This document shows, piece by piece, positions 4,238 to 34,306 of a stretch of DNA of 43,608 nucleotides (within the stretch, counting starts at the first letter, position 1; the number at the start of each line of letters is the position of its first letter). Origin of the DNA: Thermoplasmata archaeon (GTDB lineage Archaea; Thermoplasmatota; Thermoplasmata; UBA10834). The position numbers and the translations under genes are program-made. The stretch lies in the NCBI GenBank assembly GCA_020696395.1, contig JAEHCN010000003.1, forward strand, positions 1 through 43,608. Direction: 5' to 3'. The notes under the pieces are model-generated. The model was not told the DNA's origin. It made no database searches and saw only the letters and a program-made list of their open reading frames with translations.

Positions 4238-4248
4238 ACAGCGCCGAA

Positions 4249-5481
4249 TCAGGTCCTCTTTCTGTAGTACCGGTTCTTCTCGAGGTTGACGATGTCTGTC
4301 GGGTCCTCGTCGCTCTTTCTGCGCGCGACCGCGTATGCTCCGACGGTACCGATTGCGACGACCCCTATGACCACGCCTATCACGACGGATTCGCCGGATG
4401 TTCCTACCGGGATGATGTCACCAGGAATCTCTGCCTGCCCTCCCCCGATTGGATAGAGCCCCAGACTGGGGTCGTGCATCACGCTCACGGTCGTATCGTT
4501 GTAAGGTGTGGACAAGTACACTCTTAGCGATTCGCCATCCGTCCTGTACAGAGTCGCGATATCAACAAGCTCGTCCTCGTCGCCGGTCCAGCCTATCTCC
4601 GCCTGGCTTGCCCATCCGAAGAAGCTCTCATCTTCGCCCTCCTCGACAAAGGTGAAGAGCTGCTTGAAGCCGTTGCGCGGAGTGAACTTGTGAACTATCT
4701 GGACGTTTCCATCAGTCTCGTTCTCGTAGGGGTCGCTCTCCGTCACAACATCGTCCTGGTATCCATGGAACGTGTACTGCTCCGGCATCGATGTCGGCGA
4801 GAAAGTGTAATCATCCATCATCATGAGGCCAATGTCGATCGCCAGGTCCTCGGCGTAGATCGCTTTGTTTATATCGATCGATATGTCGAACTTGAGTTCC
4901 GTGGACCCGTTCACGTCATAGTCTGGGGAATCCTGGACATCATTGTAGTGTGCCGAGTAGTTGTCGCTCGTCACGATGAAGCTCACCCTGGCCTGCGCCC
5001 AGTCCTCGATGATCTCTATCCCCGGCGTCCCTGAGTCCGCGGGTCGGTCATTCTCGAAAGATGCTATCCGCCTGTTCATGTTTAGAGACGCGGTCATGTC
5101 CATGGTGACAGTCTCTCCCATATCGGCGTCAGTCTCATGTGCGACGCCGGAGAAGGTCCAAGTCGCATGTTCAAAGGACGCGCGGTATGGGACATCTTCT
5201 ATCACGAGCATGCCATCTTCGGTGGCATTGTATCCAAAGACCGCTGACATCACCAAACCGTATCCCAGTGAATCCTCCTGGTCAGGGGGAATTATCATCG
5301 CGGCAGGGAAGATCTTCGATATGGCGATGTCCATGTCGCCAGTCTCTATTACCACGGCCTCCGCAGTTTCAGCATACGAAATAGTCTGGTCTTGAGCGGA
5401 GGCTCCACCAGGCGTAGCGATGAATCCTGCCAGAAACGACGTGCAAACCAGCAGGGCGAGCAGATTCCGTGCTTTTGGCAT
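4249..5481 (-). CDS. Secreted, C-terminally membrane-anchored acidic protein of unknown function
   Basis: Signal peptide ending ASA, Asp/Glu-rich body, C-terminal TM followed by RRK. Confidence 0.8.
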   Translation of the reverse strand: MPKARNLLALLVCTSFLAGFIATPGGASAQDQTISYAETAEAVVIETGDMDIAISKIFPAAMIIPPDQEDSLGYGLVMSAVFGYNATEDGMLVIEDVPYRASFEHATWTFSGVAHETDADMGETVTMDMTASLNMNRRIASFENDRPADSGTPGIEIIEDWAQARVSFIVTSDNYSAHYNDVQDSPDYDVNGSTELKFDISIDINKAIYAEDLAIDIGLMMMDDYTFSPTSMPEQYTFHGYQDDVVTESDPYENETDGNVQIVHKFTPRNGFKQLFTFVEEGEDESFFGWASQAEIGWTGDEDELVDIATLYRTDGESLRVYLSTPYNDTTVSVMHDPSLGLYPIGGGQAEIPGDIIPVGTSGESVVIGVVIGVVAIGTVGAYAVARRKSDEDPTDIVNLEKNRYYRKRT

Positions 5482-5505
5482 GCCTGGTACTCAATCACAC
5501 TTGTC

Positions 5506-5535
5506 TTTATTAAGCCATTTGGTACACACGTAGAA
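5506..5535 (-). promoter_or_regulatory. TATA box (TTAATAAA) with upstream TTCTAC-N4-GTACCA motif; probably a leaderless transcript
   Basis: Minus strand reads TTCTACGTGTGTACCAAATGGCTTAATAAA, 25 nt before the ATG at 5481. Confidence 0.6.
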
Positions 5536-5586
5536 CTGGAAGAGGTTGCTGCGACATGCTGTCCTACCGGGGCTTCCCGTACCGTC

Positions 5587-5608
5587 AGTATGCTCAAAGT
5601 ATGCTCAA
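5587..5608. repeat. Perfect 11-bp tandem direct repeat AGTATGCTCAA x2 in a divergent promoter region
   Basis: Read directly at 5587-5597 and 5598-5608. Confidence 0.8.
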
Positions 5609-5810
5609 TCCGAGCCAGATGGAAAGCGAAATCGTGTTCGAGGCCTAAGAATCTCCTCCCTCAAGCGAATGTCAAAGGTGGAACCGCAGCCCATGCATGG
5701 CTGGCCTGAACAATTGTCAGTAAAATGCTATATAACGCAGTTACGACATAGAACAAAAGGGCTGCCCTCTGGTAGCTTCAAAGCGAAAAGATAGGGGAGG
5801 CTTAGAGAAC

Positions 5811-6596
5811 ATGAGATACAAAAGAGCATGGGCTATGGTGACAGTCACGCTGCTGGGTCTTCTGCCAGGGGCGTTGATTGTCGGTGGAGCGGAGGAACCA
5901 TCCGTCCCGATTCCCGTCACGCCGGCGGACAGCGAAGGATACGCGGTCTTCTTCGCTGACAACATGGCATTTGCGCCGCAGTGGCGAACGGGGAACCAGG
6001 TGAGGATCGAAGCGATGGTTCTCAAGGCTGGGGACTTCAACGGAGATGGCGTGACTAACGCCTCTGACATCCCACTGGACGTCAGTCTCGGGCTGACGCA
6101 GGCTGAATTGACAGCCAACCCGGATCTCATTCTTGGGACGTACATGGTGTCAGTCCCTGAGATATGGGTGACTATGTCTGGGCCTGGCGGAACGTACGAG
6201 TTCTACTCGTACTTCGCCGATGGCACGGCCGATGACACGGACACGGTTGGCAGGGAGATAAACAAGGCAGGACACCTGATCTACGGGTTCCTGTGGGACA
6301 CCACTGGCGTCGACCCTGGAGTGTACAAGGTGTCCGTCTCGATACCCGCTGAGTACGATGTGGTCATGGCGATCGAGCACCTGACCCTAGAGGAGGAAGC
6401 CGAACCGATAGGGTTCATCGAAGTTCCCGCCGCTGGAGCGGAACCCGTGTCTGGCACCGGAGGAGTAGCCGACGCTACGAACGAGGCGTTCATCTACCTC
6501 GGGGCGATAGTTGAACGCGGCTCGGGCGGCGGCGGTGGCAACGGAAACGGCGGCGGCGGAAACGGCGGCGGCGGAAACGGCGGCGGAAGGAAGTAA
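5811..6596 (+). CDS. Secreted protein of unknown family (paralog 1) with dockerin-like Ca-binding loop and Gly/Asn-rich C-terminal tail
   Basis: Signal peptide; GDFNGDGVTNASDI loop; motifs shared with 10382-11341; TATATAA promoter and GGAGG SD. Confidence 0.85.
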   Translation: MRYKRAWAMVTVTLLGLLPGALIVGGAEEPSVPIPVTPADSEGYAVFFADNMAFAPQWRTGNQVRIEAMVLKAGDFNGDGVTNASDIPLDVSLGLTQAELTANPDLILGTYMVSVPEIWVTMSGPGGTYEFYSYFADGTADDTDTVGREINKAGHLIYGFLWDTTGVDPGVYKVSVSIPAEYDVVMAIEHLTLEEEAEPIGFIEVPAAGAEPVSGTGGVADATNEAFIYLGAIVERGSGGGGGNGNGGGGNGGGGNGGGRK

Positions 6597-15912: not shown

Positions 15913-16644
15913 GTGACGGCGATGGTCAGGCCTAATCCGAAGCTCGAGGAACTCAGGGGCAATATGCTCGGGACCGAATTCAAAAGCCGAAAGAACAGGG
16001 TGTTCAGGGCTACTGATCAAGGTATGACCGTTGTTGTGAAGGAGTTCTCGGACAGCGAGGTGGCGTCTAAGGAGTTCTCCGTGTTGATGAGGTGTTCTGC
16101 CGGGTCCCTCCCGGTACCTCGGCCATTGTCGACTCACACGCGCGCGATAGTCATGGAGAGCTTATCTGGCGAGACGGTGGCGGAAGCGCTCGATTCTGTA
16201 TGGCTGGGCACAGGACCGATCTCCGCCGACGAGCGGGCCAAGCTGCTCGATATCGTCGATGGCCTCGGCGAGTGGCTTGCGAGATACCATGCCCTGTTCG
16301 AGTTCAGGATGACGAGAGGCGATGCCATCATGAAGAACTTCCTCGTGAGCGACGGCAGGATCGTCGGCATCGACTTCGAGGAGGCATCGGAGGAGGATGT
16401 GATACGCGACCTCGGCGAGATGTGCTCGAGCATCCTCAGCATGCACCCAATGTTCACGGGCGACAAACTCGCTCTCTGCAGACGACTCTCCGAGCGGTAC
16501 TTCGAGCTCACGGGCGCAGAGAGGGCCGCAGACTTGAGCGCGGCGACTGCGAAAGCTCTCAGACACTACGCCAATTACAGGACCGACGGTGGGGAGTTGG
16601 TGGCAAGAGCCGCCGTGATCGAGAGCGACGGCCTGTTCTCATGA
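15913..16644 (+). CDS. Protein-kinase-like fold phosphotransferase (RIO/Bud32/APH superfamily)
   Basis: VVVK, KEF, VPRPL, catalytic loop RGDAIMKNF, IDFE. Confidence 0.75.
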   Translation: MTAMVRPNPKLEELRGNMLGTEFKSRKNRVFRATDQGMTVVVKEFSDSEVASKEFSVLMRCSAGSLPVPRPLSTHTRAIVMESLSGETVAEALDSVWLGTGPISADERAKLLDIVDGLGEWLARYHALFEFRMTRGDAIMKNFLVSDGRIVGIDFEEASEEDVIRDLGEMCSSILSMHPMFTGDKLALCRRLSERYFELTGAERAADLSAATAKALRHYANYRTDGGELVARAAVIESDGLFS

Positions 16645-17403
16645 GAATAGTGGTAGGTCGACGGAGAGATGTCCGTCCAGCTGAAAGATTACCGTTGCCA
16701 ATGCGACCGTCGCGAGAACTGCCGCGCCGTCAGATAGGGACGGCTTGCGGGGATGCAGCAATGTGCGATCGGGATAGTTGCCGAACCCCCTGCCTGTCAT
16801 CGAGGCTGCCAACGAGTTGACCTTGAACATGGCCGAGAAGAACATCGGTAGAACGGTGTATCTGGCGGACCGTACTAGCCCTCTGACGCTTCTGTCGAGT
16901 CTCAGCCCTCTGATTGCCTGTGCCTCCCGGACTGAGTTCAGCTCAAACTGAAATATCGGCACGAACCTCATGGCCAACGCAGGAAGGTAGGCGTAGCGGT
17001 AGGGCATGCCCACAGACATCAACGATGACGACAGGTCAGAGGGCTTCGTGGTGGCAATCAGCATCCATGACATCATTATCAGGCAGAGGAACTTGCCCGC
17101 TATAGTGATTCCCGCCGAGACGCCGCCTGCGGTCAAGCTGAAGAACGCGACGGACCAGATCTCCTCTCCCGAGTGGTTGAAGATTATTTGGGCGATGAAT
17201 ATCGCGAAGGCGAACCCCACGACTCCCTTGGTGAAGATGCCCCTCGTCCGGAAGTGTTGCTTCGCTGCCAGCACGGAGATAATCAACGTTATCATAAGGA
17301 CGGGGGAGCTGATCAGTATCACCAGAACCGATGCAGTTACCAACATCAGAATCTTCGCGACGGGATTCAGACTTACGGCTCCTTCGCCCCTCAGAGTCTT
17401 CAA
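16639..17403 (-). CDS. ecfT: ECF transporter transmembrane T component
   Basis: AMRFVP, EAQAIRG and SMTGRGF coupling-helix Arg motifs; TTG start overlaps the ATPase stop. Confidence 0.9.
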   Translation of the reverse strand: MKTLRGEGAVSLNPVAKILMLVTASVLVILISSPVLMITLIISVLAAKQHFRTRGIFTKGVVGFAFAIFIAQIIFNHSGEEIWSVAFFSLTAGGVSAGITIAGKFLCLIMMSWMLIATTKPSDLSSSLMSVGMPYRYAYLPALAMRFVPIFQFELNSVREAQAIRGLRLDRSVRGLVRSARYTVLPMFFSAMFKVNSLAASMTGRGFGNYPDRTLLHPRKPSLSDGAAVLATVALATVIFQLDGHLSVDLPLFS

Positions 17404-18866
17404 AGGCCTCCCTCCCTGGACAACATGTCCCAATACCTACTAGGAACACTCTCGGTCGGCCCAGAGGCGACAACCCGCCCCTGGCTGAGGGCGATCAGGT
17501 CCGTGCAGAACCCCCTCGCAAGCTCATGATCGTGGGTCACGATTACGATGGTCTTTCCTTGGTTCTGGAGCTTCTCCAAGATGTTGACGACCCTGGTTGC
17601 GTTCCCCTTGTCTTGTCCTGCGAAGGGTTCGTCCAGCAAGATTATGCTGGGTTCATGAGACGAGCCTGATAATATGTTCACCCGCCTCTTCTGTCCGAAG
17701 CTGAGACAGTGTGGGTGGACATACCTTCTCAGGTCTTCGTGCTCCTCGAATTCCTCCACATACGATTCCGCGGTTGTGGGTGGTGCGTCGAAGTTGCGCG
17801 GAGCGAAGAGCATCTCACCCTCAACGGTGTTCTCGAAGATCTGATGGTTGGGGTTCTGGAAGATGAGTCCGACGTCCCTGCCGATTCTCCAAGCCTCTGC
17901 CCGTCTATCAGGGGTGACCGTGCTTCCGCAGACGACGATTCTCCCCTTCTGAATCTTCTGAAGCCCTGCTAGATGGCGTAGAACGGTCGTCTTCCCCGAA
18001 CCATTCTCTCCCATCAGAGCTACGACGGACCCGCCATTTATCTGGAATGATACATCGTCTAGTATTGTGAAACCATCGACTTCGTAGCTGAGTTTGTCGA
18101 CAGAGATGACGGCTAAAGCAGACGCGTCACCTGGGCGTCTGTACTCAGGCGGAGCGATAGCTTCTTCACGAATCCTCCCGAACTCCCCCTGCCCTCGAGC
18201 GCAGTTCACGGTCATCCTGCCGCCATCAAGAACCATAACCCTATCGACCAAGCCGATGAAATCCTTCAGGCGATGCTCTACGATGATCGCCGTCAGATCA
18301 GACTCATTCTTCATACCCTCTATCGCTCTGATCACCTGGCCGACCGACCTTCGATCTAAGCTCGCGGTCGGCTCATCGAGTATCAGCAGTCGAGGCTTGA
18401 CCGCGAGCATCGAAGCTATCGCGACCTTCTGCTTCTCACCTCCTGAAAGTGTCGACAGCATCCGGTCCCTTAGGTGGCTGGCTTTGACACTGGACAACGA
18501 CGAGTCAATGGCGCGCTCGATATCCGCGCGGCTGAACCTCAGGTTCTCAGGGCCGAAAGCCACCTCCTCCTCGACGGTCTCCGTGCAGAACTGGGTCTCA
18601 GGATCCTGTTGGACCATGCAGGCTAAGCCTGCAACCTCGCTGGGCTCCGTGTGGATAGTCCCATCGAGCCTGATCTCCCCGGAGATCTCCGCCGGGATCA
18701 TATCCGGAATGAATCCACAGACTGCCTGCATCGCCGTAGACTTGCCCGAGGCACTGTCGCCTGCTAGAAGGACGAACTCGCCCCGTCCGATACTGAGAGT
18801 TAGATTCGAGACCGCGGGTCTCGATCTTCCCCTATATCTGATGTTGAGATTCTTGATGTCCAGCAT
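17400..18866 (-). CDS. ECF transporter fused double ATPase (A-A')
   Basis: Two ABC domains: GDSASGKS/LSGGEKQK/LDEPT and GENGSGKT/LSFGQKRR/LDEPF. Confidence 0.92.
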   Translation of the reverse strand: MLDIKNLNIRYRGRSRPAVSNLTLSIGRGEFVLLAGDSASGKSTAMQAVCGFIPDMIPAEISGEIRLDGTIHTEPSEVAGLACMVQQDPETQFCTETVEEEVAFGPENLRFSRADIERAIDSSLSSVKASHLRDRMLSTLSGGEKQKVAIASMLAVKPRLLILDEPTASLDRRSVGQVIRAIEGMKNESDLTAIIVEHRLKDFIGLVDRVMVLDGGRMTVNCARGQGEFGRIREEAIAPPEYRRPGDASALAVISVDKLSYEVDGFTILDDVSFQINGGSVVALMGENGSGKTTVLRHLAGLQKIQKGRIVVCGSTVTPDRRAEAWRIGRDVGLIFQNPNHQIFENTVEGEMLFAPRNFDAPPTTAESYVEEFEEHEDLRRYVHPHCLSFGQKRRVNILSGSSHEPSIILLDEPFAGQDKGNATRVVNILEKLQNQGKTIVIVTHDHELARGFCTDLIALSQGRVVASGPTESVPSRYWDMLSREGGL

Positions 18867-19952
18867 CTATCTCACTTCGATAGCGACGACTTCTTCGACC
18901 CAGTAGCCTCCTTCATAAGCGTCAGCAACTAGCCGGAAGTAGCCCTCATCGTCGGTGATTATGATTCCATCTTCTTCCATGACATCCGCTAAATCGAATA
19001 CGGCGAAGTACCCGTCTCTTCCTCTGACTACGACCTCTGAAGCTCCATCCTGAGGGACGGCTTCCGCCAACAAGTCGCTCAAGAGAATCCCGGTGTAGTC
19101 TCTGGGGGCGACATGAGTGACTGTGCCGACCAGCTCGGCGTTCACCACCACTTCCCGGTCTTCGAAGTCGTCGTATCTGAAGTCGAAGGGGTTGTCGACA
19201 TCGCCCTCGACGCTGATTGCATCTCCTCCATGCAGGGTGAACACGAACATGAAGTAGTAGACGGCCCCGAGGATGAAGACCGTCAAGAAAGAGGCTACCG
19301 CCGCCAGGGACGCCCTTCTTCGCCTCTTCGCCTGTCTGTTCCTCTTCCACGCTTCATCTTCAGCTGAGCGTTGGTCGACGAACACCTCCTTATTCCCGCC
19401 GACCACGCCTGCCTCCTCCAGTGCCTCGAGCATCTCAACTGAGAGCCAGCCACCGAACACCATGCCGGAGGCGCAGGCGAGCATGCACAGCACGAGGATC
19501 AGGATCCACGGAACACCCGCAAAGAATAGTGTCTGGAACACAATCACGTTGACCGCCGCGGAGAGGCCGCCGGCAGCGGAATACGAAAAGTAGTCCCTTC
19601 GGTCCTTCGCCTTGTCGCTGAAGAGGACCATGTCAGCCACGACTCCCTGCATCAACGACACGACTACGATGACGACCCCGTGCGTGCTCCCAGTGAACAG
19701 CTCCACGACGCCTTTGAGCGCTCCTGTGACGGTTCCAGCGCCCTTCTTCTTCGTTATGCCTATCGCCAGGATGATCCAAAGGACATGAAGTCCGGCCATG
19801 AACTGTCCTGCGCCGAAGGGCACGCCGACGATGTGGTTCATGAGATTCCCAAGGTACCCTACGTAGGTCGAGAGGACACCGCCCAGAGCAGACAGTAGAG
19901 CGATGGTGATGAGATCCTTGGTCGAGAGCATCAGTCGTTTGGTCACGGGCAC
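18867..19952 (-). CDS. ECF S component (YkoE/ABC_cobalt-like) fused to a C-terminal extracellular Oxidored_molyb-like domain
   Basis: TKDLITIALLSALGG, six TMs, KKKGAG; an extra TM then VEGDVDNP..YTGILLSDLL..GRDGY; GTG start after SD GGAGGTGA. Confidence 0.8.
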   Translation of the reverse strand: MPVTKRLMLSTKDLITIALLSALGGVLSTYVGYLGNLMNHIVGVPFGAGQFMAGLHVLWIILAIGITKKKGAGTVTGALKGVVELFTGSTHGVVIVVVSLMQGVVADMVLFSDKAKDRRDYFSYSAAGGLSAAVNVIVFQTLFFAGVPWILILVLCMLACASGMVFGGWLSVEMLEALEEAGVVGGNKEVFVDQRSAEDEAWKRNRQAKRRRRASLAAVASFLTVFILGAVYYFMFVFTLHGGDAISVEGDVDNPFDFRYDDFEDREVVVNAELVGTVTHVAPRDYTGILLSDLLAEAVPQDGASEVVVRGRDGYFAVFDLADVMEEDGIIITDDEGYFRLVADAYEGGYWVEEVVAIEVR

Positions 19953-21439
19953 GGTATCACCTCCACCAAGGCGACGCATTTGACCCATCTCGCCCCGGCT
20001 GAAGGATACACGACGTATCCCTGTCCTTCGTAGGAGGTGGCCTCGCAATCAGGGTTGCTGTACTCCCCATCAGGGGCAAGCATGACAAGCTTGGGCCCAT
20101 CCCCCCATTCTGGCACCAGCTCTGATTCATAGCTCAGCGCCACCACCATCTCCCCTTGGAGCTGAAGCCATGCTTCGTTCGGGTAGACGTTCAGGTAACC
20201 GAATTCCTGGAGGTAGCCGTCTGAGGAAGTGACGCGTAGCACATCCCCCTCAATGATCCCTCCGACCAGCTCGACCAGGTTCGCAACCGAGACCCCCGAG
20301 TAGTCACCCGCTCCTCCGATGTTGTCGTAGAGGTTCTCGAACGAGGAATATCCTTCTGTAGTCGACATCGCGAACATCTCGTCATAGGACAAGTCCAAGC
20401 GCGATCCCTCTCTTCCGACGAGAGTCACGAGGGATAGATTCGAAGCATCGATTGCGGCCTCGACCTTCTCAAAGACGAGGTTGTCAGAACCGACCACGGT
20501 CACGTTCACGAAGTGGTGTTCGCCGTCGACAAGAGTTGCCCCCGCTCCTCCAGTGATGATGAAATCCGTATCACCGATGACTGTGTGGTTGAATGCGTGT
20601 ATGTGCCCAGTGAAGACCGCCTCGATGTCATCCGTTTCGATGAATTCGAGCATTCGGTCGCACGAATCCGGATATAGCGTATGATTATCACCGAACGGGT
20701 CGAAGCACGGCGCGTGGGTCACGATGACGTTCCTGGTTGCACCGCTGAACTCCTCTCTCATCCATGATATCTGTTCCTCGGTGACATTGAGGTCGGACGA
20801 GTCAACAATTACGAACCGTATGCCCCCGAAGTCGAAGCCGTATTGAGTCGGGCCGAACCTCGTCTCGTACTCGGTTATGCCATCGTTCTTCGCGTCGTGG
20901 TTGCCCGGCGTGGTGTAGACCGGGACGGGGGAACTGCATAGCACTTCCTGGACTGCTGCGAACTCGCTCGGCATTCCCGAGGGGGTCAGGTCCCCGCACA
21001 GTATAGCAAACTCGCATTCTCCGAGCGCTGAGAGCATCGACACGAGAATCTCATTCCGTCCGTGGCTGTCTCCGAGGACAGCGAACGTGAGGCTATCCTT
21101 CGCCGTCGGCCTGATGCATATGTCGTCTGAGCTGCCAGTTGAACGGAACGATATCGAAGTGTTGTCCGGGAACTCGTATTCGTCGACCCCTTCAACGGAG
21201 GACCCCGCGACGCAGTTGCGGAGTTCCACATCTCCTTCGAAGCCGTTCAAACGGAGTGATACCTCCGGCTTGTAGCACCAAATCTCCACCGCATCATCAA
21301 ACTGCGCTCTGACGATGCCTCCATCGACTACGATATCTGAACCTGAGGTGAGGATGAGCCCTGATTTGTATGCAACATGCAAGCTAGCAGCGATTACCAG
21401 CGTACATACCGCTAAAGCCGCCGCCCGCTTCCTGTTCAT
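19943..21439 (-). CDS. Membrane-anchored calcineurin-like metallophosphoesterase fused to an Oxidored_molyb-like domain
   Basis: GDSH, GDLT, PGNHD, VTH, FTGHIH motifs; C-terminal YSGVSVANLV..SSDGY..GPKLV; N-terminal signal/TM. Confidence 0.85.
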   Translation of the reverse strand: MNRKRAAALAVCTLVIAASLHVAYKSGLILTSGSDIVVDGGIVRAQFDDAVEIWCYKPEVSLRLNGFEGDVELRNCVAGSSVEGVDEYEFPDNTSISFRSTGSSDDICIRPTAKDSLTFAVLGDSHGRNEILVSMLSALGECEFAILCGDLTPSGMPSEFAAVQEVLCSSPVPVYTTPGNHDAKNDGITEYETRFGPTQYGFDFGGIRFVIVDSSDLNVTEEQISWMREEFSGATRNVIVTHAPCFDPFGDNHTLYPDSCDRMLEFIETDDIEAVFTGHIHAFNHTVIGDTDFIITGGAGATLVDGEHHFVNVTVVGSDNLVFEKVEAAIDASNLSLVTLVGREGSRLDLSYDEMFAMSTTEGYSSFENLYDNIGGAGDYSGVSVANLVELVGGIIEGDVLRVTSSDGYLQEFGYLNVYPNEAWLQLQGEMVVALSYESELVPEWGDGPKLVMLAPDGEYSNPDCEATSYEGQGYVVYPSAGARWVKCVALVEVIPCP

Positions 21440-21443
21440 CTCC

Positions 21444-22964
21444 TCACTCTGGAAGGTCTACGAGGTCTACCCTGACCACACCTTTGACATTCGTCGATCC
21501 CGGCAAGTCCTCCCCCGTAAGCATTAGGGGGTATTCCTCTCCTGTGAAGTACTCTCCGTCGAAAGTCAGCGCCAGTATCAAGGAATCATTGTATTCCACA
21601 TCTTCCACAGAAAGGGTCTTGCTGTAACCATCCGACCCGGTGACCTTCACACCGTAGCCAAGGTCTGCGAGCGTGTCGTTGAACAGCCAGTGAGATGAGT
21701 CCGCTCCGTCGACGAGTCCGACCAGGACCCACAGTGGGATGCCCGCGTAGCTGTGCTCTTCCAGGTCTTCGGTGTAGTTGTAGTAACTGACATGCAGCCC
21801 CTCGTCGCAGTTGAACAACGCGACGAAATCCCACTCGGTGAATGTCTCCGTCGTAAGGCCTGCGAGTGTGAGCTCCCATGCCGGGGTTTCTACATATCCC
21901 TCGATGGCTATCCGGACGATGTTCCTAACCTTCTGGGAGCCTGCAAGGTCATCGCCGACAATCCTCAGTGGCCAGTCATCCTCTGCAAGCACCTCCCCAT
22001 CCAGCTTGTAGGCGACGATGATGCTGTCGTTCCTGGCTACCTGCGCCGCATCAAAGGTGGCCGAGTACCCGTCTGAGGCGGTGACGTTGACCGTGTATCC
22101 AGCCTCTGCGAGCGCGTCGTTGAACATGTAATGACCATCAGGTGCATCCGCTTCGTCCACTGCTGAAAGCAGAACCCATAGTGGGATTCCCTCGTAGTAG
22201 TGATCGTCATCATCGTCCGTGTAGTTGTAGTAGGTCGTGTGGTAGTAGCACGTGGCCAAGGACTCGAAAGTCTGACTGTTCATGTCCATCGTAGTGACTC
22301 CCTCGAGCTCGAGGGTCCAGTCGTGGACGAACGGGGCCACGTTCAGCTCCTTGACCATCTTTGCCCAGAAGTGTCCGTCCGTGACGGGCTTCTCCTCATC
22401 GTCCACTACCACTATCCTCAGACTGTCGTAGGCAAGGCGCTCCCCATCCTCCTCGTAAGCAAGCATCATCGTGAGGTCATCCGGTCCAAGGAGCTCGCCG
22501 TCGAGGTTGTAGGTAGGGAAGGTCCCGTTCTCGACCTGTCCTGAGTTGTAGGTCATCTCGTACCCGTCCCAAGCGACGGTGTTCAGGCTGTAGTTGTCGC
22601 CGTCGTAGACAAGGTCGACCAAATCACTAACTGGTATCCCCGTGAAGTTGAGAGGGCCGACGATGGTCCCAGTAGATTTCATGAAGTACCCGGAACCTTC
22701 GTAGGATTCCATGTCCGATAGTTCTGAGACGGTCAGATTCACACTTCCGCCGAACCCGGAGATGATGATTGCAGCGTCACCATCTGGATTCGAATCGTCC
22801 GTCCCTTGGGTCGCCAAGTATCCCAGAGGTACTCCTACCAGGAGTGCGGCAATCGCCACAAGGGCGATTAGCTTCCGACCGCCCATTCTCTTCGGCACTT
22901 TCGGTGAGGGTGCTTCCATTCCCTTCACAGGCCCGTTGTCGGTATCTCGATTCTCCTCCGCCAT
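21444..22964 (-). CDS. Membrane-anchored protein with three tandem molybdopterin-oxidoreductase-like (Oxidored_molyb) domains
   Basis: Three repeats of [FY]xGIP..DGY..(P)L[RM][IL]..K.V; N-terminal TM; start at M88 of the ORF track. Confidence 0.8.
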   Translation of the reverse strand: MAEENRDTDNGPVKGMEAPSPKVPKRMGGRKLIALVAIAALLVGVPLGYLATQGTDDSNPDGDAAIIISGFGGSVNLTVSELSDMESYEGSGYFMKSTGTIVGPLNFTGIPVSDLVDLVYDGDNYSLNTVAWDGYEMTYNSGQVENGTFPTYNLDGELLGPDDLTMMLAYEEDGERLAYDSLRIVVVDDEEKPVTDGHFWAKMVKELNVAPFVHDWTLELEGVTTMDMNSQTFESLATCYYHTTYYNYTDDDDDHYYEGIPLWVLLSAVDEADAPDGHYMFNDALAEAGYTVNVTASDGYSATFDAAQVARNDSIIVAYKLDGEVLAEDDWPLRIVGDDLAGSQKVRNIVRIAIEGYVETPAWELTLAGLTTETFTEWDFVALFNCDEGLHVSYYNYTEDLEEHSYAGIPLWVLVGLVDGADSSHWLFNDTLADLGYGVKVTGSDGYSKTLSVEDVEYNDSLILALTFDGEYFTGEEYPLMLTGEDLPGSTNVKGVVRVDLVDLPE

Positions 22965-22979
22965 GTCAATCGTCCTCGT

Positions 22980-23023
22980 TATGCTCGTGCGAGCATATCG
23001 CGGATAGAATCGCGGTATAAATA
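22980..23023 (-). promoter_or_regulatory. TATA box (TATTTATA) plus perfect 8-2-8 inverted repeat over the predicted transcription start
   Basis: TATGCTCG-TG-CGAGCATA at 22980-22997; ATCGCGG direct repeats at 22997 and 23009; TATA at 23016-23023. Confidence 0.6.
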
Positions 23024-23149: not shown

Positions 23150-24304
23150 CTATCCCTCTAGCCCCTTGACGACATCCTTCAGGGAGTTCCTTATCTTGAT
23201 GCCTTGAGGGCATAGCTCCTCGCACTTACCGCATTCGGTGCACTTCGACGCTCTGTTCTTCGGCTTGACTGCCCAAGAATACATCCTCTTTGCGTAGGAT
23301 ATGTCGTCATACATGTATCCGTGGTTCAGCTGCTCGAAGCACGCGGGTATGTCGACTCCCGAAGGACAGGGCGTGCAGTACTTGCACCCTGTGCATGGAA
23401 TCCTGGACTTGGATTCCAGCCCTTTCCTCACCCTTTCGATTAGCGTCTTCTCACCCTTTGTGAGGCAGCCCGGTTTGGCCTTATCGGCTATTCTGACGTT
23501 CTCCCTAAGCTGACCCATGGTCGTCATGCCGCTCAGAACCACGCTAACCTCCCGTTTGTCCCAGAGGAACCTCAGAGCTAGCTCGGCGGGGGTCCTTTTC
23601 GGCGCCGCTCTATCAACCTTTCGGCGTATGTCGCGCGGCAGCTTGTTCCCCAGAAACCCTCCGAGCAGGGGCTCCATGATAATCACGCCGAGCTTCTTTC
23701 TCGCTGCGTACTTGAGCCCCCTCGTCCCCGCCTGGTTTTCCTCGTCCATGTAGTTGTACTGTATCTGGCAGAATCCCCAGTCGTAGGCGTCTACGATCTC
23801 CTTGAACACTGGCAACTCGTCATGGAATGAGAAACCCGCGTGCCGGATCCTGCCGTCTGACAGGGCGGCATCGAGGAAATCCAAAACCTTGTGGTTGTTG
23901 AGATTCTTCCAGAAGTTGAGTGTGAGCCCATGGAGGAGATAGAAGTCGATGTAGTCCGTTCGGAGCCTTTTCAGCTGATCGTCGAGGTATTTGTCCATGT
24001 CCTTTCTGCTCTTCACTAGCCAGATGGGAAGCTTGGTGGCTATCTTGAACTCATCTCTCGGAAAATCGCGTAGAACCTTCCCGAGGAGCGGTTCGCTCCT
24101 GCCTTTAGGGCTGCGGTCGGACTTGTGATACGGATAGGCCGTGTCGAAGTAGTTAACTCCGTGTTTGATGGCGTAGCGTATCATCGCAGTAGCTCTCTTC
24201 TCGTCGATCTGATGCGCCTTGCCATCGATCGTGGGAAACCTCATGCATCCGAATCCTAATATCGAGGCTCTCTCGCCTGTCTTGCCGATCTTCCTGTACA
24301 GCAT
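23150..24304 (-). CDS. Aldo/keto reductase with C-terminal 4Fe-4S dicluster
   Basis: SILGFGCMR, YFDTAYPY, ATKLP, DFYLLHG, CTGCKYCTPCP and CTECGKCEELCP. Confidence 0.93.
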   Translation of the reverse strand: MLYRKIGKTGERASILGFGCMRFPTIDGKAHQIDEKRATAMIRYAIKHGVNYFDTAYPYHKSDRSPKGRSEPLLGKVLRDFPRDEFKIATKLPIWLVKSRKDMDKYLDDQLKRLRTDYIDFYLLHGLTLNFWKNLNNHKVLDFLDAALSDGRIRHAGFSFHDELPVFKEIVDAYDWGFCQIQYNYMDEENQAGTRGLKYAARKKLGVIIMEPLLGGFLGNKLPRDIRRKVDRAAPKRTPAELALRFLWDKREVSVVLSGMTTMGQLRENVRIADKAKPGCLTKGEKTLIERVRKGLESKSRIPCTGCKYCTPCPSGVDIPACFEQLNHGYMYDDISYAKRMYSWAVKPKNRASKCTECGKCEELCPQGIKIRNSLKDVVKGLEG

Positions 24305-28882: not shown

Positions 28883-30754
28883 TCACCTTCCCAGGGGCAC
28901 GACTGTGCTAGTCTGTGGTGCTCCCCCTCTGAACAGATAGCACGCGACCATGTGTCCTCCGCCAACATCGTACAGGGGCGGGTCCTCAGTCTTGATGAAT
29001 CTGACTGCCACTACCTTCTGAGTAGTCTTCGTCCTCTTGACGGTGATCTTGCTCACCATATTGGCGCCGCTCCCACCGCCTTCTGTGGAGAACTGACGTC
29101 TGAGAACAGATTCGAGTCTGGTCCAGTTATCCTCTGGGCCCATGATGCTGATCCTCACCTTCCTGCCCTTCGTCTTGACCGGGAATAGGTGTGTCGACAG
29201 TTCCTTCTCGTCGGCGACACACCTCTCGACGTGCTTGGCCACGTCCTTTGCCACCGCAGCCGCCGGTCCCTTGGCGTCACCGCATGTGACTACAACGGAT
29301 CTTCTCGAAGGGTCCGGTGAGATGCTCTTGACCCCCCTGAACTCCGGTCGGTTCTTTCGCTTGTGGTATCGGACATAATCCTCCAGGAAGGCCTCGACTA
29401 CCTTCACGTTCTGGTCACCACCGCCCACCGATACGGTCAGACGGCCCCCCTCCTGCTTCATGTCGGAGATGATGTCGTGCATCGGGTGGTCTGTCTCTCG
29501 ATAGGTCACCGTTGACTCGATCAGGGCGAAAAGCTCGCGCGCGAGTTCATCGGCGGACATCTTCGTCGACTTGCATCTCATCTCGATGAATCTGTCCGTC
29601 AGAGTCGAGTCGATCGCCTCGACAGCCTCCACGATAGGATTCTGTCCCCTGGACTTCTCGAGCAGGTTCCTGATCGAGTCGATGACCGCCTGCGCGTCCG
29701 CGGCGTCCTTGATCCTGATCTGGAGTATGAATCCGCCAGGTTCGAGCCCATCAACGGCGCCTGCAAGGACGGCGTCACCTGCCAAGCGATTCTCCTCCTC
29801 CAGCCAATCGATGAAATCGGCAGCCTGCCATCCGCAGTCCTTGAACGACTTCGGGCACCTCGGCCTGAACCTGCATCCGAGAGGCACGTTCGCCGCACTC
29901 GGCACCTCTCCCTTGATCTGGATCCTTCCGTGCTTCGCATCAGGGTCTGGGACTGGCACGGCCGAGAGCAACGCCTGCGTGTACGGGTGTTTCGGCTCGA
30001 ATATCACAGTGTCGGTCTCGCCGAGTTCAACGGTCTTTCCTAGGTACATGACCGCGAGCCGGTCGCTTATGTAACGCGCCACAGCGATGTCGTGCGTGAT
30101 GAAGAGGTAGGGTATTCCATACTTGTCCCTGAGGTCGAGCATCAGGTTCAGAACACCTGCACGTATGGACACGTCGAGCATCGATACAGGTTCATCGGCG
30201 ACTATCACCCTGGGCTTGACCACGAGTGCCCTTGCGATGGATACTCTCTGCCTCTGACCACCGCTTAGCTCGTGCGGGAATCGGTTCAGATACTCCTTGG
30301 CGGGCGCCAGCCCTGCATCCTCGAGCGCCTGAACGACCATCTCGAGCCTCTCCTCGGCGGTCTCTCCGACGTTGTGGTTCTGCAGTGGCTCCATTATGGT
30401 CTGGAGCGCCGTCGTTCTCGGGTTGAGCGATTCGTAGGGGTCCTGGAAGACCATCTGGATGTTTCTGCGGAAGACCTTGACGTCCTGTCCTTCCAGGAGT
30501 GCGATGTCTCTCCCGAGGAAGAACACGTAACCATCCGTCGGGTCTTCGAGTCTGGTGAGCAGTCTGCCGACAGTGGTCTTGCCACAGCCGCTCTCCCCAA
30601 CGAGCCCAAGTATCTCCCCGGAGCGCAAGTCGAGGTTGACGCCATCCACGGCTCTGACGAAAGGTGTCTCCTTGCCGAACGACAGGAACCCTTTCTTGAG
30701 CTCGAAGTACTTCTTCAGGTCTCTGACCTTGATGATGATGTCCCCTGCCGCCAT
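28883..30754 (-). CDS. oppF: Oligopeptide/dipeptide ABC ATPase (OppF/DppF-like) with ~280-aa insertion in the C-terminal domain
   Basis: GESGCGKT, FQDPYESLNP, LSGGQRQR, ADEP, HPYT, CRFRPRC..C..ACYL. Confidence 0.9.
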   Translation of the reverse strand: MAAGDIIIKVRDLKKYFELKKGFLSFGKETPFVRAVDGVNLDLRSGEILGLVGESGCGKTTVGRLLTRLEDPTDGYVFFLGRDIALLEGQDVKVFRRNIQMVFQDPYESLNPRTTALQTIMEPLQNHNVGETAEERLEMVVQALEDAGLAPAKEYLNRFPHELSGGQRQRVSIARALVVKPRVIVADEPVSMLDVSIRAGVLNLMLDLRDKYGIPYLFITHDIAVARYISDRLAVMYLGKTVELGETDTVIFEPKHPYTQALLSAVPVPDPDAKHGRIQIKGEVPSAANVPLGCRFRPRCPKSFKDCGWQAADFIDWLEEENRLAGDAVLAGAVDGLEPGGFILQIRIKDAADAQAVIDSIRNLLEKSRGQNPIVEAVEAIDSTLTDRFIEMRCKSTKMSADELARELFALIESTVTYRETDHPMHDIISDMKQEGGRLTVSVGGGDQNVKVVEAFLEDYVRYHKRKNRPEFRGVKSISPDPSRRSVVVTCGDAKGPAAAVAKDVAKHVERCVADEKELSTHLFPVKTKGRKVRISIMGPEDNWTRLESVLRRQFSTEGGGSGANMVSKITVKRTKTTQKVVAVRFIKTEDPPLYDVGGGHMVACYLFRGGAPQTSTVVPLGR

Positions 30755-30756
30755 GT

Positions 30757-32040
30757 CTACTCCCTCCTCCTGAGCTCGTCCCATAGCTCTTTCGCATAGT
30801 GGCAGTAGGATATGTGCCCTGGCTCCACCTCTACTCCCTTGGGTCGCCCCTCTTGGCAGGCCTTTCTAGCGTGCTGGCACCGAGGATGGAACGGACACCC
30901 GCTCGGCGGCTCCACCAGGTCCGGTGGGAACCCGGGGATCGATATGAGCCGTTTCTTCTTCCCCTTGATGGAGGGGAACGATCCGAGGAGTCCCGCCGTA
31001 TAGGGATGAGCAGTGTTCTTGAAGACCTGCGTCGTCCTGCCGATCTCCATCATGAGTCCAGCATACATGACGCCTATCTTGTCTGAGACCTCTGCAACCA
31101 CTGATACATCGTGGGTGATGATCATCATGGCCATATTGAGCTGCTCCTGCAGCCTGCGTATCTCTGCGAGGATCCTGTCCTGGGTGATGACGTCCAGGGC
31201 CGTCGTCGGTTCGTCCGCTATCACGAACGACGGGTTCAGGGCCAGCGCGAGTGCTATCATGGCCCTCTGCTTCATCCCACCTGAGAACTCGTGCGGGTAG
31301 TTGTCGATCCTGTCTGGACCTATGCCGACGAATTCGAACAACTCTCTGGCCCTTTCGCGTGCCTCGTCGTCGCTGACATCTTTATGCAGCGTGATCGCCT
31401 CGATGATTTGGTCCCCGACCTTGAAGACCGGATTGAAGGCGTTCATTGCACCCTGGAATATCATCGATATCTCCGTCCAGCGGATCTTCCGTATCTTCTC
31501 GTTGTAGTCGTCGAGGGATCCGTCCTTGCGTATTGATATTCTGAGGAGATCGTACGAGTATGTGAGGGCCGAGAGTCTGTTCTCCAACTCGCTAGCCTCC
31601 GCTGTCAGCTCCACGAGACGTTTCTCGAGGATGGGAGATGATGAGGTCGACCCAGAGGCCCCCTTCTGCTGCGGAGATTTCGCTAACTCCTCCTGAAGCT
31701 TCCGCAGTTCACCCCGCAACGGACTTAGTTTACTCGTCACCCTTGCGATTTCCTTCTTCCTAGCCGTCGGTGCGCTCTTGAAACTCTCATCGTACTTCCT
31801 TCTCAGATCTGCGACCCTAGGGGGTTCCTTGAAGAATATGTGCCCCCCTTTGATGAACCCGTTGGGCGGCAGGAGCTGGGTGATGGCGTACGCCGCCGTG
31901 GTCTTCCCGCAGCCGCTCTCCCCAACGAGCCCCATGGTCTCCCCGAGATCGATGGTGAAGGTGATGCCGTCGACGGCCTTGACCCACCCTTCCTCTATCT
32001 TGAAATGAACCTTGAGGTTCTTGACTTCGAGCAGGGCCAT
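30757..32040 (-). CDS. oppD: Oligopeptide/dipeptide ABC ATPase (OppD/DppD-like) with ~90-aa coiled-coil insertion
   Basis: GESGCGKT, ISMIFQGAMNAFNP, FSGGMKQR, ADEPTTALD, HPYT, CPFHPRC..C..C. Confidence 0.9.
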   Translation of the reverse strand: MALLEVKNLKVHFKIEEGWVKAVDGITFTIDLGETMGLVGESGCGKTTAAYAITQLLPPNGFIKGGHIFFKEPPRVADLRRKYDESFKSAPTARKKEIARVTSKLSPLRGELRKLQEELAKSPQQKGASGSTSSSPILEKRLVELTAEASELENRLSALTYSYDLLRISIRKDGSLDDYNEKIRKIRWTEISMIFQGAMNAFNPVFKVGDQIIEAITLHKDVSDDEARERARELFEFVGIGPDRIDNYPHEFSGGMKQRAMIALALALNPSFVIADEPTTALDVITQDRILAEIRRLQEQLNMAMMIITHDVSVVAEVSDKIGVMYAGLMMEIGRTTQVFKNTAHPYTAGLLGSFPSIKGKKKRLISIPGFPPDLVEPPSGCPFHPRCQHARKACQEGRPKGVEVEPGHISYCHYAKELWDELRRRE

Positions 32041-32044
32041 GATA

Positions 32045-34306
32045 TCATCTCCTCCTGAGGCGTGGGTTCACGACCTCATCGAACGCCCTTCCTATCAGGT
32101 AGAACGCGAGTGACAGCAGCGTGATCGCGATCCCCGGGGGCAGGAGCCACCAGGGCGCGTCGAGCGAGTGTCCGCTGATCTGCAGGTACTGCAGCATCAT
32201 TCCCCATGTTATCGCATTGGGGTCTCCGAACCCGAGGAAGGCCAGGATGGCCTCGGTCACGATCGCCCCGCTGATCATGAATGTCATGTATAGGAACGCG
32301 AAGGGGAGCACGTTCGGGCCGATGTGCCTGAAGATGAGCCGCATATCCGATGCTCCAGCGACTATGGCGGCGTCGACGAACGCCCTTTTGCGCGTGGAGA
32401 GCGTCACCGACCTGATCACCCTGGCGATGCCCGCCCAGGATAGGATGGCGAAAATTATGATGATATTGAACAGCGAGGGCCCGAAGGCAGCTGCGAAAAG
32501 TAGCATTATGACAAGGTACGGCAGGCTCAGCATCACATCTGTCGCCCTCATGAGGAGCTCCCCGACGAAGCCCGAGTAGAACCCTGCGACAAGCCCAACG
32601 ATCGTCCCTATCACGACCGAGAAGAACGCTGCGGTGACGCCAACCAACAGCTCCGCCCGAGTGCCGAACATCACCTGGGTCAGGATGTCGTGTCCCTCGT
32701 AGTCCGTGCCAAGCGGATAGTAGTTGCCGGACGGATAAGTGCCCGGTGGTAGCGGGGCAATGTTCACTCCAGTGAGCGTCTCAACGAAGAGCGAGTTGTC
32801 CTCCGTTATCACTCCGAAGTAATTGCCGGTTTTCGAGTCTTCGATGTAGATGTTCCCAAGGAACGCCACAGGCGTGACAGCCCCACCTCCAGGAGCGCTG
32901 AAGGTGGCATTGATCTTCATCTCGTTCGTGATTAGATATATCGTCCCCTTGTCGGTGCTGAAAACGAATCGATACTGGCCACTGACATACTGTGGCGGGC
33001 TGTTGAGGTATCCGTCCACCGTCGAGAAGAGCGTGTTGTTGCTCCCGACCCTGCCTGTCTTCGGGTCGAGGCCAACAACGAGCCCTCTATCGCCCGTCCT
33101 GCCCACCATGACGAGATGCTCCGGCGAGGAATGGAGCGAGGATATATCGAAATCCCGTATGCCTGGAAGTATCGGTTTGCTCGACCAAGTCACGTTGCCC
33201 GTGAGTCTGTCATAGGCAACTACGCGTCCATCTGTCGTCGCAACGAAAACGGATTCCTTGCCGATCGCGGTGGTGGGCTGGTACGGGTACTGGAAGATGA
33301 TCATGTCATCGCCAACCACTGGTTCAAACGCCTCGTCTTCGACGGTGTAGTTACTCTCCCATCTGAGGGCGTCTATGGTTACGTTGAGGATCTTTCCCGT
33401 GAGCAGGGATTTCGTGAGGTTGAGGTCATAAGTCCTAAGCCCAACATCGGTGGGTACGATGAGCATGCTCCCGTTGGCGAAGTCTCCATCGACCACCAAC
33501 GGGTTTCCCACGATGGTCGCGTTGGCTATCGTGAGGTTGCTCGTGAAGGTGACTCCGTCCAAACCGGGTTCGGTGATGTCCGGCGGTCTCTTGTTGATCA
33601 TCCAGACGTTGTGGTCATCCGCGAATGCCATGGCTAGCCTGCCAACCTGATATAGCGGCGAGAATCCGTTCCATAGATTGGACGTGTACAGTGGAACGAA
33701 CGGTATCTCGTGCTCTCGGATGTACAGGAAATCATAGCTGTATTCGTACAATGTGGCTGATTGGTTGTCTCCTTCCTGGTTTGAACGGAGTACGAAGAAG
33801 AAAGTCTTGTAGAAGTGGGTGTAGTCCAGGTAGTCCGCTTCGGCGGGCAACTGTACGGTCGACGGTTCCTCGATATCTATGCCGAGCTCGCCCGTCTCCT
33901 CGCCACTGCCCGTCCTCGCAACTGGGTATACGATTACCGTACCTCCCTCTGAGTAGACCATCAGCCTCTCCATAGGCCTGTCCTTGAGGGTAGACGTCAG
34001 GCCAAGAATCTCCGTCCAGTTGCTATCAGAGGGTAGGTCTCGGGTTGCGTAGTCTGCTATGAAAGTGTCGATTGCGGGCGCCTTGAAATCCGCATTATAG
34101 GGGGCGGTCCAGGGTGCCGTGATGGCGATGACCAGGAATCCGAACACGATGCCCATGCCGGTCACACCCGTCAGCGACCTTCGATAGATCTTCCATGTGT
34201 TCCTCAGAGCTATCGCGATCCGTCTGGCTGTCTTTATGCCGGCCTCCTGGAGCTCCCTCGTATCGGGTCTTTTCGTCTGCTCTTTCGCCTCTTCTTCCTC
34301 TTTCAC
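32045..34306 (-). CDS. oppC: Oligopeptide ABC permease (OppC-like) with ~440-aa extracellular beta-propeller-like insertion
   Basis: YPLGTDYEGHD, EAA-loop FVDAAIVAGAS..IFRHIGPN, AFLGFGDP, NPRLR. Confidence 0.88.
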   Translation of the reverse strand: MKEEEEAKEQTKRPDTRELQEAGIKTARRIAIALRNTWKIYRRSLTGVTGMGIVFGFLVIAITAPWTAPYNADFKAPAIDTFIADYATRDLPSDSNWTEILGLTSTLKDRPMERLMVYSEGGTVIVYPVARTGSGEETGELGIDIEEPSTVQLPAEADYLDYTHFYKTFFFVLRSNQEGDNQSATLYEYSYDFLYIREHEIPFVPLYTSNLWNGFSPLYQVGRLAMAFADDHNVWMINKRPPDITEPGLDGVTFTSNLTIANATIVGNPLVVDGDFANGSMLIVPTDVGLRTYDLNLTKSLLTGKILNVTIDALRWESNYTVEDEAFEPVVGDDMIIFQYPYQPTTAIGKESVFVATTDGRVVAYDRLTGNVTWSSKPILPGIRDFDISSLHSSPEHLVMVGRTGDRGLVVGLDPKTGRVGSNNTLFSTVDGYLNSPPQYVSGQYRFVFSTDKGTIYLITNEMKINATFSAPGGGAVTPVAFLGNIYIEDSKTGNYFGVITEDNSLFVETLTGVNIAPLPPGTYPSGNYYPLGTDYEGHDILTQVMFGTRAELLVGVTAAFFSVVIGTIVGLVAGFYSGFVGELLMRATDVMLSLPYLVIMLLFAAAFGPSLFNIIIIFAILSWAGIARVIRSVTLSTRKRAFVDAAIVAGASDMRLIFRHIGPNVLPFAFLYMTFMISGAIVTEAILAFLGFGDPNAITWGMMLQYLQISGHSLDAPWWLLPPGIAITLLSLAFYLIGRAFDEVVNPRLRRR

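Follow-up and report, generated by a model that had tools for sequence, protein, structure and literature searches.

A candidate ECF importer for molybdenum and tungsten pyranopterin cofactors in Thermoplasmata archaea

We analysed a stretch of 43,608 nucleotides from a Thermoplasmata archaeon (assembly GCA_020696395.1, contig JAEHCN010000003.1, positions 1 to 43,608; hereafter the window), in which five tightly packed minus-strand genes (16639–22964) encode an energy-coupling factor (ECF) transporter together with exported proteins built around domains of the sulfite oxidase (SUOX) fold. This cluster, here called the cassette, is most likely a dedicated group-I ECF importer that salvages mature, metal-loaded tungsten- or molybdenum-molybdopterin (W-MPT/Mo-MPT), the tungsten and molybdenum cofactors (Tuco and Moco), from outside the cell. 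We put the probability that its cargo is a Mo/W pyranopterin cofactor at about 0.72. Gene content, protein folds, the complementary distribution of cassette and Moco biosynthesis, and a link to Moco/tungsten riboswitches are established directly. An earlier note on this DNA, made from the letters alone, had proposed an ECF importer for scavenging molybdo- or tungstopterin, and the proposal is supported by the fold of the domains, by the complementarity with the Moco pathway and by riboswitches in the leaders of bacterial relatives.

An ECF operon with five SUOX-like domains

Read in the direction of transcription, the operon begins with an anchored extracytoplasmic protein carrying three SUOX-like domains (21444–22964), followed by a surface metallophosphoesterase with a fourth (19943–21439), a YkoE-family ECF S component that has a seventh helix and a fifth SUOX-like domain (18867–19931, with an alternative start at 20048), a fused double ECF ATPase (EcfA-EcfA′, 17400–18866) and an ECF T component of the EcfT/CbiQ family (16639–17433). 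The open reading frames (ORFs) were verified at these coordinates, and the gene products assigned in the earlier note are all present according to the ORF list, Pfam and NCBIfam. Its description of the junctions as gaps of 0–4 nt or overlaps holds for three of them: the first and second genes are 4 nt apart, the third and fourth abut (0 nt), and, with the TTG at 17433 taken as the EcfT start, the fourth and fifth share 34 nt. Between the second and third genes there is either a gap of 11 nt or an overlap, depending on whether the S component starts at 19931 or 20048.

The S component matches ABC_cobalt (PF09819) at 69.8 bits in Pfam and, by sequence, YkoE (5edl) at 27 bits (E 2e-5). An AlphaFold2 (AF2) model of the fusion, built from 63 homologues with a mean pLDDT of 76, shows the six helices of an S component, a long seventh helix after a Lys/Arg-rich stretch, and then a beta-rich domain. 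In Foldseek the membrane part finds YkoE 5edl (E 1.8e-6, target-normalised TM 0.79). The fused ATPase scores 179.5 bits against ABC_tran in two stretches (Pfam), 322.2 bits against ECF_ATPase_1 (cut-off 315) and 320.3 bits against ECF_ATPase_2 (cut-off 330) in NCBIfam, and EcfT matches CbiQ (PF02361) at 96.1 bits, with 54.5 bits against TIGR02454, under the cut-off of that model. The S and T components and both ATPase domains are thus encoded together, as befits a group-I ECF system. ECF systems are not known to have an extracytoplasmic substrate-binding protein or domain, and its absence is a hallmark of this class of transporter. That hallmark is broken here, as the S component carries a fused SUOX fold and its two exported neighbours bring four more.

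Pfam recognises Oxidored_molyb (PF00174, cut-off 24 bits) in two stretches of the anchored protein (48.2 bits) and in the C-terminus of the S component (26.2 bits), and made no such call on the first repeat of the anchored protein or on the phosphoesterase copy. A hidden Markov model (HMM) built from the five copies in the window and run over the whole genome recovered these five, one unrelated anchored copy on contig C67, and nothing else; the three matches in the anchored protein score 161–178 bits and that in the phosphoesterase 153 bits. All five copies lie on the minus strand: repeats 1 to 3 of the anchored protein at about 22344–22784, 21897–22343 and 21447–21896, the phosphoesterase domain at about 19946–20434, and the S-component domain, predicted to face outwards, at 18870–19235. 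Both [YF]xG[IV]x[LV] and DGY are present in 5/5 copies of the alignment, as the earlier note had stated. It was also right that three copies (repeat 1, phosphoesterase and S component) have no Cys before the motif, the stretch in which SUOX-family enzymes have their Mo-ligating Cys; repeats 2 and 3 have one conserved Cys each.

These domains fall into conserved subtypes. A Trp without a Cys marks the S-type and the phosphoesterase-type, and two further subtypes have a conserved Cys; in the alignment the phosphoesterase copy shows the C-terminal Trp, which is missing from repeats 2 and 3. Orthologues of the anchored protein have 3 to 7 repeats of these subtypes, giving 5–9 SUOX-like copies per system across related loci. 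The pattern of conserved residues suggests a division of labour among the subtypes. In the S-fused domain, Y-x-G, D-G-Y and the C-terminal Trp are invariant across 63 homologues. A 13-sequence profile aligns its Y-x-G-[IV]-P-L, DG and RLV..YEGAYWV with WRGVPL, DG and RLVVPGYYGTYWV of SorA, so that the third motif falls on the RLVVPG..YWV region of that enzyme. Foldseek of the modelled C-terminal domain returns SorA (E 1.8e-5), YedY with a W cofactor (1xdy, 1e-4), nitrate reductase, sulfite oxidase and all PruR structures, the last at TM 0.59–0.63 normalised to the PruR chain, with 7kom the best (TM 0.63). The comparison with PF00174 that the earlier note had called for therefore comes out in its favour, with Pfam above cut-off in two proteins and the modelled S fusion matching SorA, YedY and PruR.

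The domains share with the SUOX-family Moco domains of SorA (2blf/2c9x), YedY/MsrP (1xdq/1xdy) and sulfite oxidase (1sox) both the fold and the WxGV, DG and RLVVPG..WV region. Unlike those enzymes they are about 120–165 residues long, a truncation of the SUOX fold to the size of PruR, and have no dimerisation domain, redox domain or twin-arginine signal. They might nonetheless be catalytic extracytoplasmic Moco enzymes resembling MsrP or sulfite oxidase, which the ECF system supplies or beside which it is merely located; the PF00174 scores above cut-off and the conserved Cys that repeats 2 and 3 have near where one would be expected would fit such a role. We consider it very improbable. Three of the domains have no Cys, inspection of the two N-terminal anchors (anchored protein and phosphoesterase) found no twin-arginine motif, Pfam found no haem, Fe-S or MsrQ-like redox partner in the cassette, and the hosts lack Moco synthesis, as described below. 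We infer that all five domains are non-catalytic.

The closest parallel for such a domain is PruR of Proteobacteria (7kos, 7kou, 7kom, 7kp2, 7rkb), a periplasmic, non-catalytic pterin binder that is likewise an exported, degenerate SUOX fold of about 150 residues. PruR is described as Cys-less and as sandwiching its pterin between the Tyr of an N-x-Y motif and a C-terminal Trp (PMC11194511). The absence of Cys is shared by three of the five copies, and the S-fused domain has a Tyr and a C-terminal Trp at places that may be comparable, a likeness seen at the level of fold and motif. PruR, however, is a free sensor that controls the c-di-GMP enzyme DcpA, whereas the cassette domains are fused to parts of a transporter and occur in 5–9 copies; no DcpA-type GGDEF-EAL protein is encoded in the window or the related loci.

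A sixth SUOX-like domain occurs elsewhere in the source genome, in the small, N-terminally anchored protein on contig C67 (5245–5898, plus strand, locus L020). It scores 88.4 bits against PF00174 and has the canonical Cys (ICVSG), WTGV and VVPGKWGYKW motifs without a twin-arginine signal, in a host genome without a Moco pathway.

The phosphoesterase also has an N-terminal anchor. Its catalytic part, at about residues 110–320, matches Metallophos at 53 bits and Metallophos_2 at 43 bits, and the metal-binding motifs GDSHG, GD, GNHD and GHIH are all present. By sequence its nearest solved relatives are GpdQ-type phosphohydrolases, which are diesterases (E 2.5e-10), followed by purple acid phosphatases.

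Complementarity with the Moco pathway

The source assembly (1.71 Mb, estimated to be 86% complete, G+C about 56% in the window) yields no match to MoaC, MoaE, the MoaA C-domain, MoeA_N, MoCF_biosynth, PF13531 or PF12849. It does contain four matches to aldehyde:ferredoxin oxidoreductase (AOR), three to PF00384 and one true PF00174 protein, as well as a MobA-like gene; the models it matches best are MobA models throughout, at 126, 114 and 100 bits, each short of its strict cut-off. This combination of cofactor-dependent enzymes with a missing pathway recurs among its relatives, which are recorded as metagenome-assembled genomes of Thermoplasmata.

Among 28 genomes of the order, each at least 85% complete, 18 have the cassette and 10 do not, while AOR is found in 28/28; the cassette-bearing genomes have 2–6 tungsten aldehyde oxidoreductase genes and retain MobA where this was checked. 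MoaC occurs in 3/18 cassette-bearing genomes, one of these being a remnant (in genome G015), against 8/10 cassette-free genomes. The corresponding counts are 3/18 and 8/10 for MoaE, 3/18 and 10/10 for MoeA_N, 4/18 and 10/10 for PF00994, and 2/18 and 10/10 for the tungstate-binding protein PF13531 (one of the ten below cut-off). In the two cassette-free genomes without MoaC and MoaE, MoeA and MoaB stand at the very start of a contig: the Moco cluster is simply cut by the contig end, and the pathway is kept in 10/10. Two single-contig genomes, G017 and G018, have the cassette and lack the entire pathway. The PF13531 match of G007, which has an intact five-gene Moco cluster, is a TupA-like gene followed by TupB.

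One closed genome has lost part of the pathway by deletion. G015 has the cassette and, in place of moaA-moaE-moaC, a single ORF of 188 residues that joins the first ~57 positions of the radical-SAM profile, from the start of moaA, to MoaC positions 62–136; MoaB and MoeA are intact next to it. This is a fresh moaA-moaE-moaC deletion. In a tree of ThiC its near-identical sister is G014, which is cassette-free and pathway-positive. The G014 assembly itself breaks within moaC, with matches to positions 1–56 and 84–136 on contigs C229 and C140; a break in the same gene in which the G015 deletion ends may reflect strain heterogeneity. Across the order the ThiC tree calls for at least four changes of cassette state and six of pathway state. 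A PBP_like_2 match in G015 proved to be PstS rather than TupA, within a full pstSCAB, and no PBP_like_2 protein (PstS/TupA-type) is found in the source genome, G017 or G018, three genomes of its genus.

The pattern extends to a sample of 401 genomes of the class. The cassette is present in 35 of these, and all 35 have AOR. It is found in 29 of the 46 AOR genomes without MoaC and in 6 of the 102 with it. A second family, f14, shows it again among its 25 genomes, with 12 genomes having the cassette only, nine MoaC only, three both and one neither. In the order and the class alike, then, the S-component fusion goes with Mo/W enzymes and missing moa genes, an association that the earlier note had proposed to look for.

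A convergent gene on the plus strand (15913–16644), overlooked in the earlier note, belongs to the system as its sixth component. It encodes a small kinase of the protein-kinase-like fold (APH 33.8 bits, RIO1 28.3 bits), in which the residues for catalysis (Lys, Glu, D-x4-N and D-x-E) are kept across 21 sequences. An orthologue (at least 124 bits) is present in 16/18 cassette-bearing genomes of the order and in 0/10 cassette-free genomes, where nothing nearer than a paralogue about 35% identical turns up. The gene adjoins EcfT in 10 of 13 fetched loci, the remaining three ending at contig ends, and it also stands beside the cassette in Asgard and Bacillota loci, in some on the same strand directly after EcfT. 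The AF2 model (pLDDT 95.4) has PRPK/Bud32 and RIO as its nearest folds, together with small-molecule kinases. A paralogue about 33–37% identical to the cassette kinase is encoded elsewhere in the source genome (contig C77, 18058–18612, minus strand); it occurs in 23 of 25 genomes of the window's family within the order sample, with or without the cassette.

Relatives, riboswitches and the surroundings of the locus

In a genome collection scanned at one genome per species, relatives of the S fusion are encoded at 235 loci. We examined the best 80, each a full-length fusion; they come from Thermoplasmata, Asgard archaea and syntrophic Bacillota, the last including Syntrophomonas, Syntrophaceticus, Pelotomaculum, Anoxynatronum buryatiense and A. 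sibiricum; the Anoxynatronum isolates are cultured and have a cofactor riboswitch near the cassette. Most of the loci examined hold to the order phosphoesterase, S component, fused ATPase, T component, often with proteins of SUOX-like domains and the kinase.

An Rfam scan of 19 bacterial loci placed the Moco/tungsten riboswitch (RF01055, gathering score 36) in nine of them. In six (L078, L079, L080, L082, L083 and L099) it is part of the operon leader, in coding-strand orientation, at 61–72 bits and 85–292 nt from the first cassette gene, though L079 and L082 are near-identical to each other; most of the other bacterial loci end short on the 5′ side. The copies shown are all without the P3 stem, a variant that Regulski et al. 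tied to genes of the tungsten cofactor (PMC2408646). In the same 19 loci neither a thiamine pyrophosphate (TPP) riboswitch nor a tetrahydrofolate (THF) or other riboswitch class was found at threshold.

The regulatory evidence bears on two readings in which the cargo is an organic molecule of another kind. The cassette might be an ordinary thiamine or hydroxymethylpyrimidine (HMP) importer of the YkoEDC type, with its extra domains as unrelated decoration. Its S component belongs to PF09819, 5edl is the best fold match of its membrane part, and most database names for it are of the kind 'ABC-type thiamin/hydroxymethylpyrimidine transport system permease subunit'. YkoEDC of Bacillus subtilis, the thiamine/HMP system of 5edl, is likewise a single operon that encodes an S component of this family, two ATPases fused in one chain and a T component of its own. 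The cassette, in contrast, adds a seventh helix and a SUOX fold to the S component, and binding proteins, a phosphoesterase and a kinase to the operon; its bacterial versions stand behind Moco/Tuco rather than TPP riboswitches, and its similarity to YkoE amounts to 27 bits. ThiC, moreover, is present in 28/28 genomes of the order, irrespective of the cassette. The earlier note had allowed that the S component might turn out to bind thiamine or HMP; on genomic grounds this candidate was rejected, by ThiC in every genome together with the absence of TPP riboswitches, and we regard it as scarcely credible.

The imported compound might, alternatively, be a different pterin, of the neopterin/monapterin type, a precursor of folate or methanopterin, or a related heterocycle, with only an indirect link to the loss of Moco synthesis. 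The three Cys-free domains lend this some colour, as they resemble PruR, a binder of simple pterins in a shortened pocket (PMC11194511). It nevertheless has a small chance of being correct. The complementarity is specifically with the Moco pathway and the tungstate-binding protein, the riboswitch is of the Moco/Tuco class, and the top PF00809 orthologue (257–285 bits) is present in 5/5 genomes checked, regardless of the cassette.

A third possibility is that the ECF system imports tungstate or molybdate, the SUOX-like domains binding the anion or serving otherwise. Cassette-bearing archaea mostly lack the PF13531/TupA-type protein that is present in all ten of their cassette-free relatives, and Moco/Tuco riboswitches also control tungstate and molybdate transporters (PMC2408646). 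In the Pelotomaculum operon (L083), furthermore, two TupA-like proteins (3825–5851, plus strand) replace the phosphoesterase after the leader riboswitch and before the S component. Yet the same archaea, the two single-contig genomes included, are also without MoaA, MoaC, MoaE, MoaB and MoeA; with that pathway missing, imported metal would have no pterin to enter. The fused domain, too, has a fold that binds Moco and pterins and not one that binds oxyanions. We give oxyanion import a slender chance.

Loci of two bacterial genera contain further genes linked to the same riboswitch class. In the Anoxynatronum loci L091 and L093 (11218–12001, plus strand) RF01055 (78.7 bits) precedes a stand-alone S component of 178 residues (PF12822, 37.4 bits), which is followed by a 2Fe-2S gene; it may serve as another S component, also cofactor-related, that draws on the same ECF module. 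Farther along L083 (10261–12994, plus strand) a second riboswitch follows the kinase and precedes a surface protein of 729 residues that combines PKD domains with a Shr-like haemoglobin-interacting domain (91 bits), which hints at harvesting of the cofactor from proteins.

Within the archaeal window Rfam found no regulatory RNA, a tRNA being the sole match. A TTTATA box at 23016–23021 (minus strand), read directly from the sequence, is the putative archaeal promoter of the operon. The longest ORF of the anchored protein extends to 23225, and the ATG at 22964 together with this box, 52–57 nt upstream of it, favours the start at 22964 used in the earlier note; the box in turn supports a promoter belonging to the operon itself. 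From the box to the start codon the sequence contains two copies of CCGCGAT, 12 nt apart (22985–23012, minus strand); this repeated heptamer is a possible operator. Directly upstream of the operon lies a gene whose product joins an aldo/keto reductase to a 4Fe-4S dicluster domain (23150–24304, minus strand), the box falling past its stop at 23150; this adjacency is not conserved in related loci. Farther off on the same strand are a family-5 solute-binding protein of 1479 residues with added Big_1, MG4 and CarboxypepD_reg domains (35450–39889) and, beside it, an oligopeptide-type ABC system (28883–34306) that includes a 753-residue permease with a long extracytoplasmic part.

A proposed salvage route and its place among known systems

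The losses in these genomes narrow down the form in which the cofactor would enter. The steps before MobA and the metal-binding protein have gone, while MobA and the enzymes are kept; the point of entry for salvage would therefore be metal-loaded MPT. Cyclic pyranopterin monophosphate (cPMP) and metal-free MPT were rejected as the general cargo, as MoaE, MoaB, MoeA and the tungstate-binding protein have been lost along with MoaA and MoaC in most carriers and MobA has been kept. In G015, with its intact MoeA and MoaB, the cargo may also be metal-free MPT.

The ligand's exact form, its hand-over from domain to domain and what the phosphoesterase and kinase act on are matters of inference. The five extracytoplasmic SUOX-like domains (three on the anchored protein and one each on the phosphoesterase and S component) would act as antennae that bind the cofactor. 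The phosphoesterase would then trim the captured cofactor, removing its terminal phosphate and/or the nucleotide of dinucleotide forms, and the S component, powered by EcfAA′T, would import the trimmed molecule. The linked kinase would put the phosphate back, trapping the cofactor inside, from where it could pass to the aldehyde:ferredoxin oxidoreductases and, via the retained MobA, to enzymes that use the bis-molybdopterin guanine dinucleotide (bis-MGD) form. For the phosphoesterase, taken together with the strictly linked kinase, trimming outside and re-phosphorylation inside is the simplest model. It would follow the logic of NAD/nicotinamide-riboside salvage by NadN-PnuC-NadR in Haemophilus, where a surface enzyme of the metallophosphoesterase type trims a phosphorylated cofactor, a transporter imports the trimmed form and a cytoplasmic kinase re-phosphorylates it; the proteins and the cofactor are unrelated, so that the parallel is one of analogy only. 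We give this part of the scheme about one chance in three, because the closed genome G018 has no phosphoesterase and some loci have no kinase within 6 kb.

A number of observations weigh against cofactor import as a whole or against parts of the route just described. The only solved member of the S-component family, 5edl, binds thiamine, and sequence similarity of the fused domain to PruR is not significant in searches against solved structures (E 0.28 and 0.94). According to PMC9026282, Moco that is not bound to protein is chemically unstable. The riboswitch alone cannot tell uptake of the cofactor from uptake of the metal, as metal transporters share this control, and one of the operons, in Pelotomaculum, includes the two TupA-like genes. 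The query used found no phosphoesterase anywhere in G018, which retains the kinase; conversely, no kinase lies within 6 kb of the cassette in Anoxynatronum, Hermodarchaeota and some other loci, and neither the fold of the kinase nor NCBIfam separates protein from small-molecule substrates. As for the distribution, the ThiC tree provides only 3–4 independent contrasts, which all run in the predicted direction but do not suffice for statistical significance (sign test p = 0.25). Five archaea of the class sample, plus the one with the remnant, have both cassette and MoaC, and MoaC is present in 3/3 Bacillota cassette genomes tested. With the query used, 17 AOR genomes match neither MoaC nor the cassette, two of these cases being contig breaks.

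The genomes with both cassette and MoaC, in Bacillota and in the class sample, mean that the system is not confined to auxotrophs. Two Asgard cassette genomes, whose completeness is not established, gave no match to MoaC. The AOR genomes that remain without either belong to families f7, f12, f14, f15, f16, f20, f24 and f31 (G032, G040, G043, G053, G058, G068, G082, G094, G100, G106, G318, G333, G341, G344 and G381) and may use a divergent importer or another route.

Uptake of ready-made Moco from other organisms has been described in Caenorhabditis elegans (PMC7849362, PMC9026282), and PMC9026282 names this animal as the sole exception known to the rule that the cofactor must be made de novo. 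That case differs from ours in concerning an animal in which the transporter is not known and protein-bound Moco is the proposed species. Among prokaryotes, Peng et al. (2018, PMC6147048) reported 'orphan molybdoprotein' genomes, which have molybdoenzymes without a full Moco pathway and often without a Mo transporter, and left them unexplained. The available text of that study offers no uptake system, and the cassette could account for some of the genomes that it lists. Likewise, the available text of a 2013 survey of riboswitch regulons has no category for Moco uptake (PMC3766115), and the contexts of Moco RNAs in PMC2408646 include 'genes of unknown function' in Syntrophomonas wolfei. The earlier note knew of no characterised ECF transporter for Moco or its tungsten counterpart, and our literature search agrees, having found no published prokaryotic Moco/Tuco importer or link between ECF and Moco; the supplementary gene lists of PMC2408646 and PMC6147048 may already hold the genes.

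As an ECF transporter the cassette is novel in architecture and, on our reading, in function, and it would show that ECF transporters are able to use extracytoplasmic binding domains. A broader picture, in which ready-made W/Mo cofactor is taken up widely among prokaryotes by means of SUOX arrays, a surface phosphoesterase and a new 'dephospho-molybdopterin kinase', with whole lineages of auxotrophic sediment archaea, is one we hold to be doubtful and put forward tentatively. If cofactor import is correct, it would challenge the view of Moco as the one major cofactor that cells must make for themselves because it is too unstable to share, and a prokaryotic importer would help to explain the orphan-molybdoenzyme genomes, in which the pathway and metal transporters are both missing. 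A Moco transporter with its binding domains may also be of interest for delivery of the cofactor in Moco deficiency. In the broader picture these sediment lineages would be cofactor auxotrophs dependent on the Moco or Tuco of their neighbours. Exchange of W/Mo cofactors would join the cross-feeding dependencies of anoxic sediments and syntrophic consortia.

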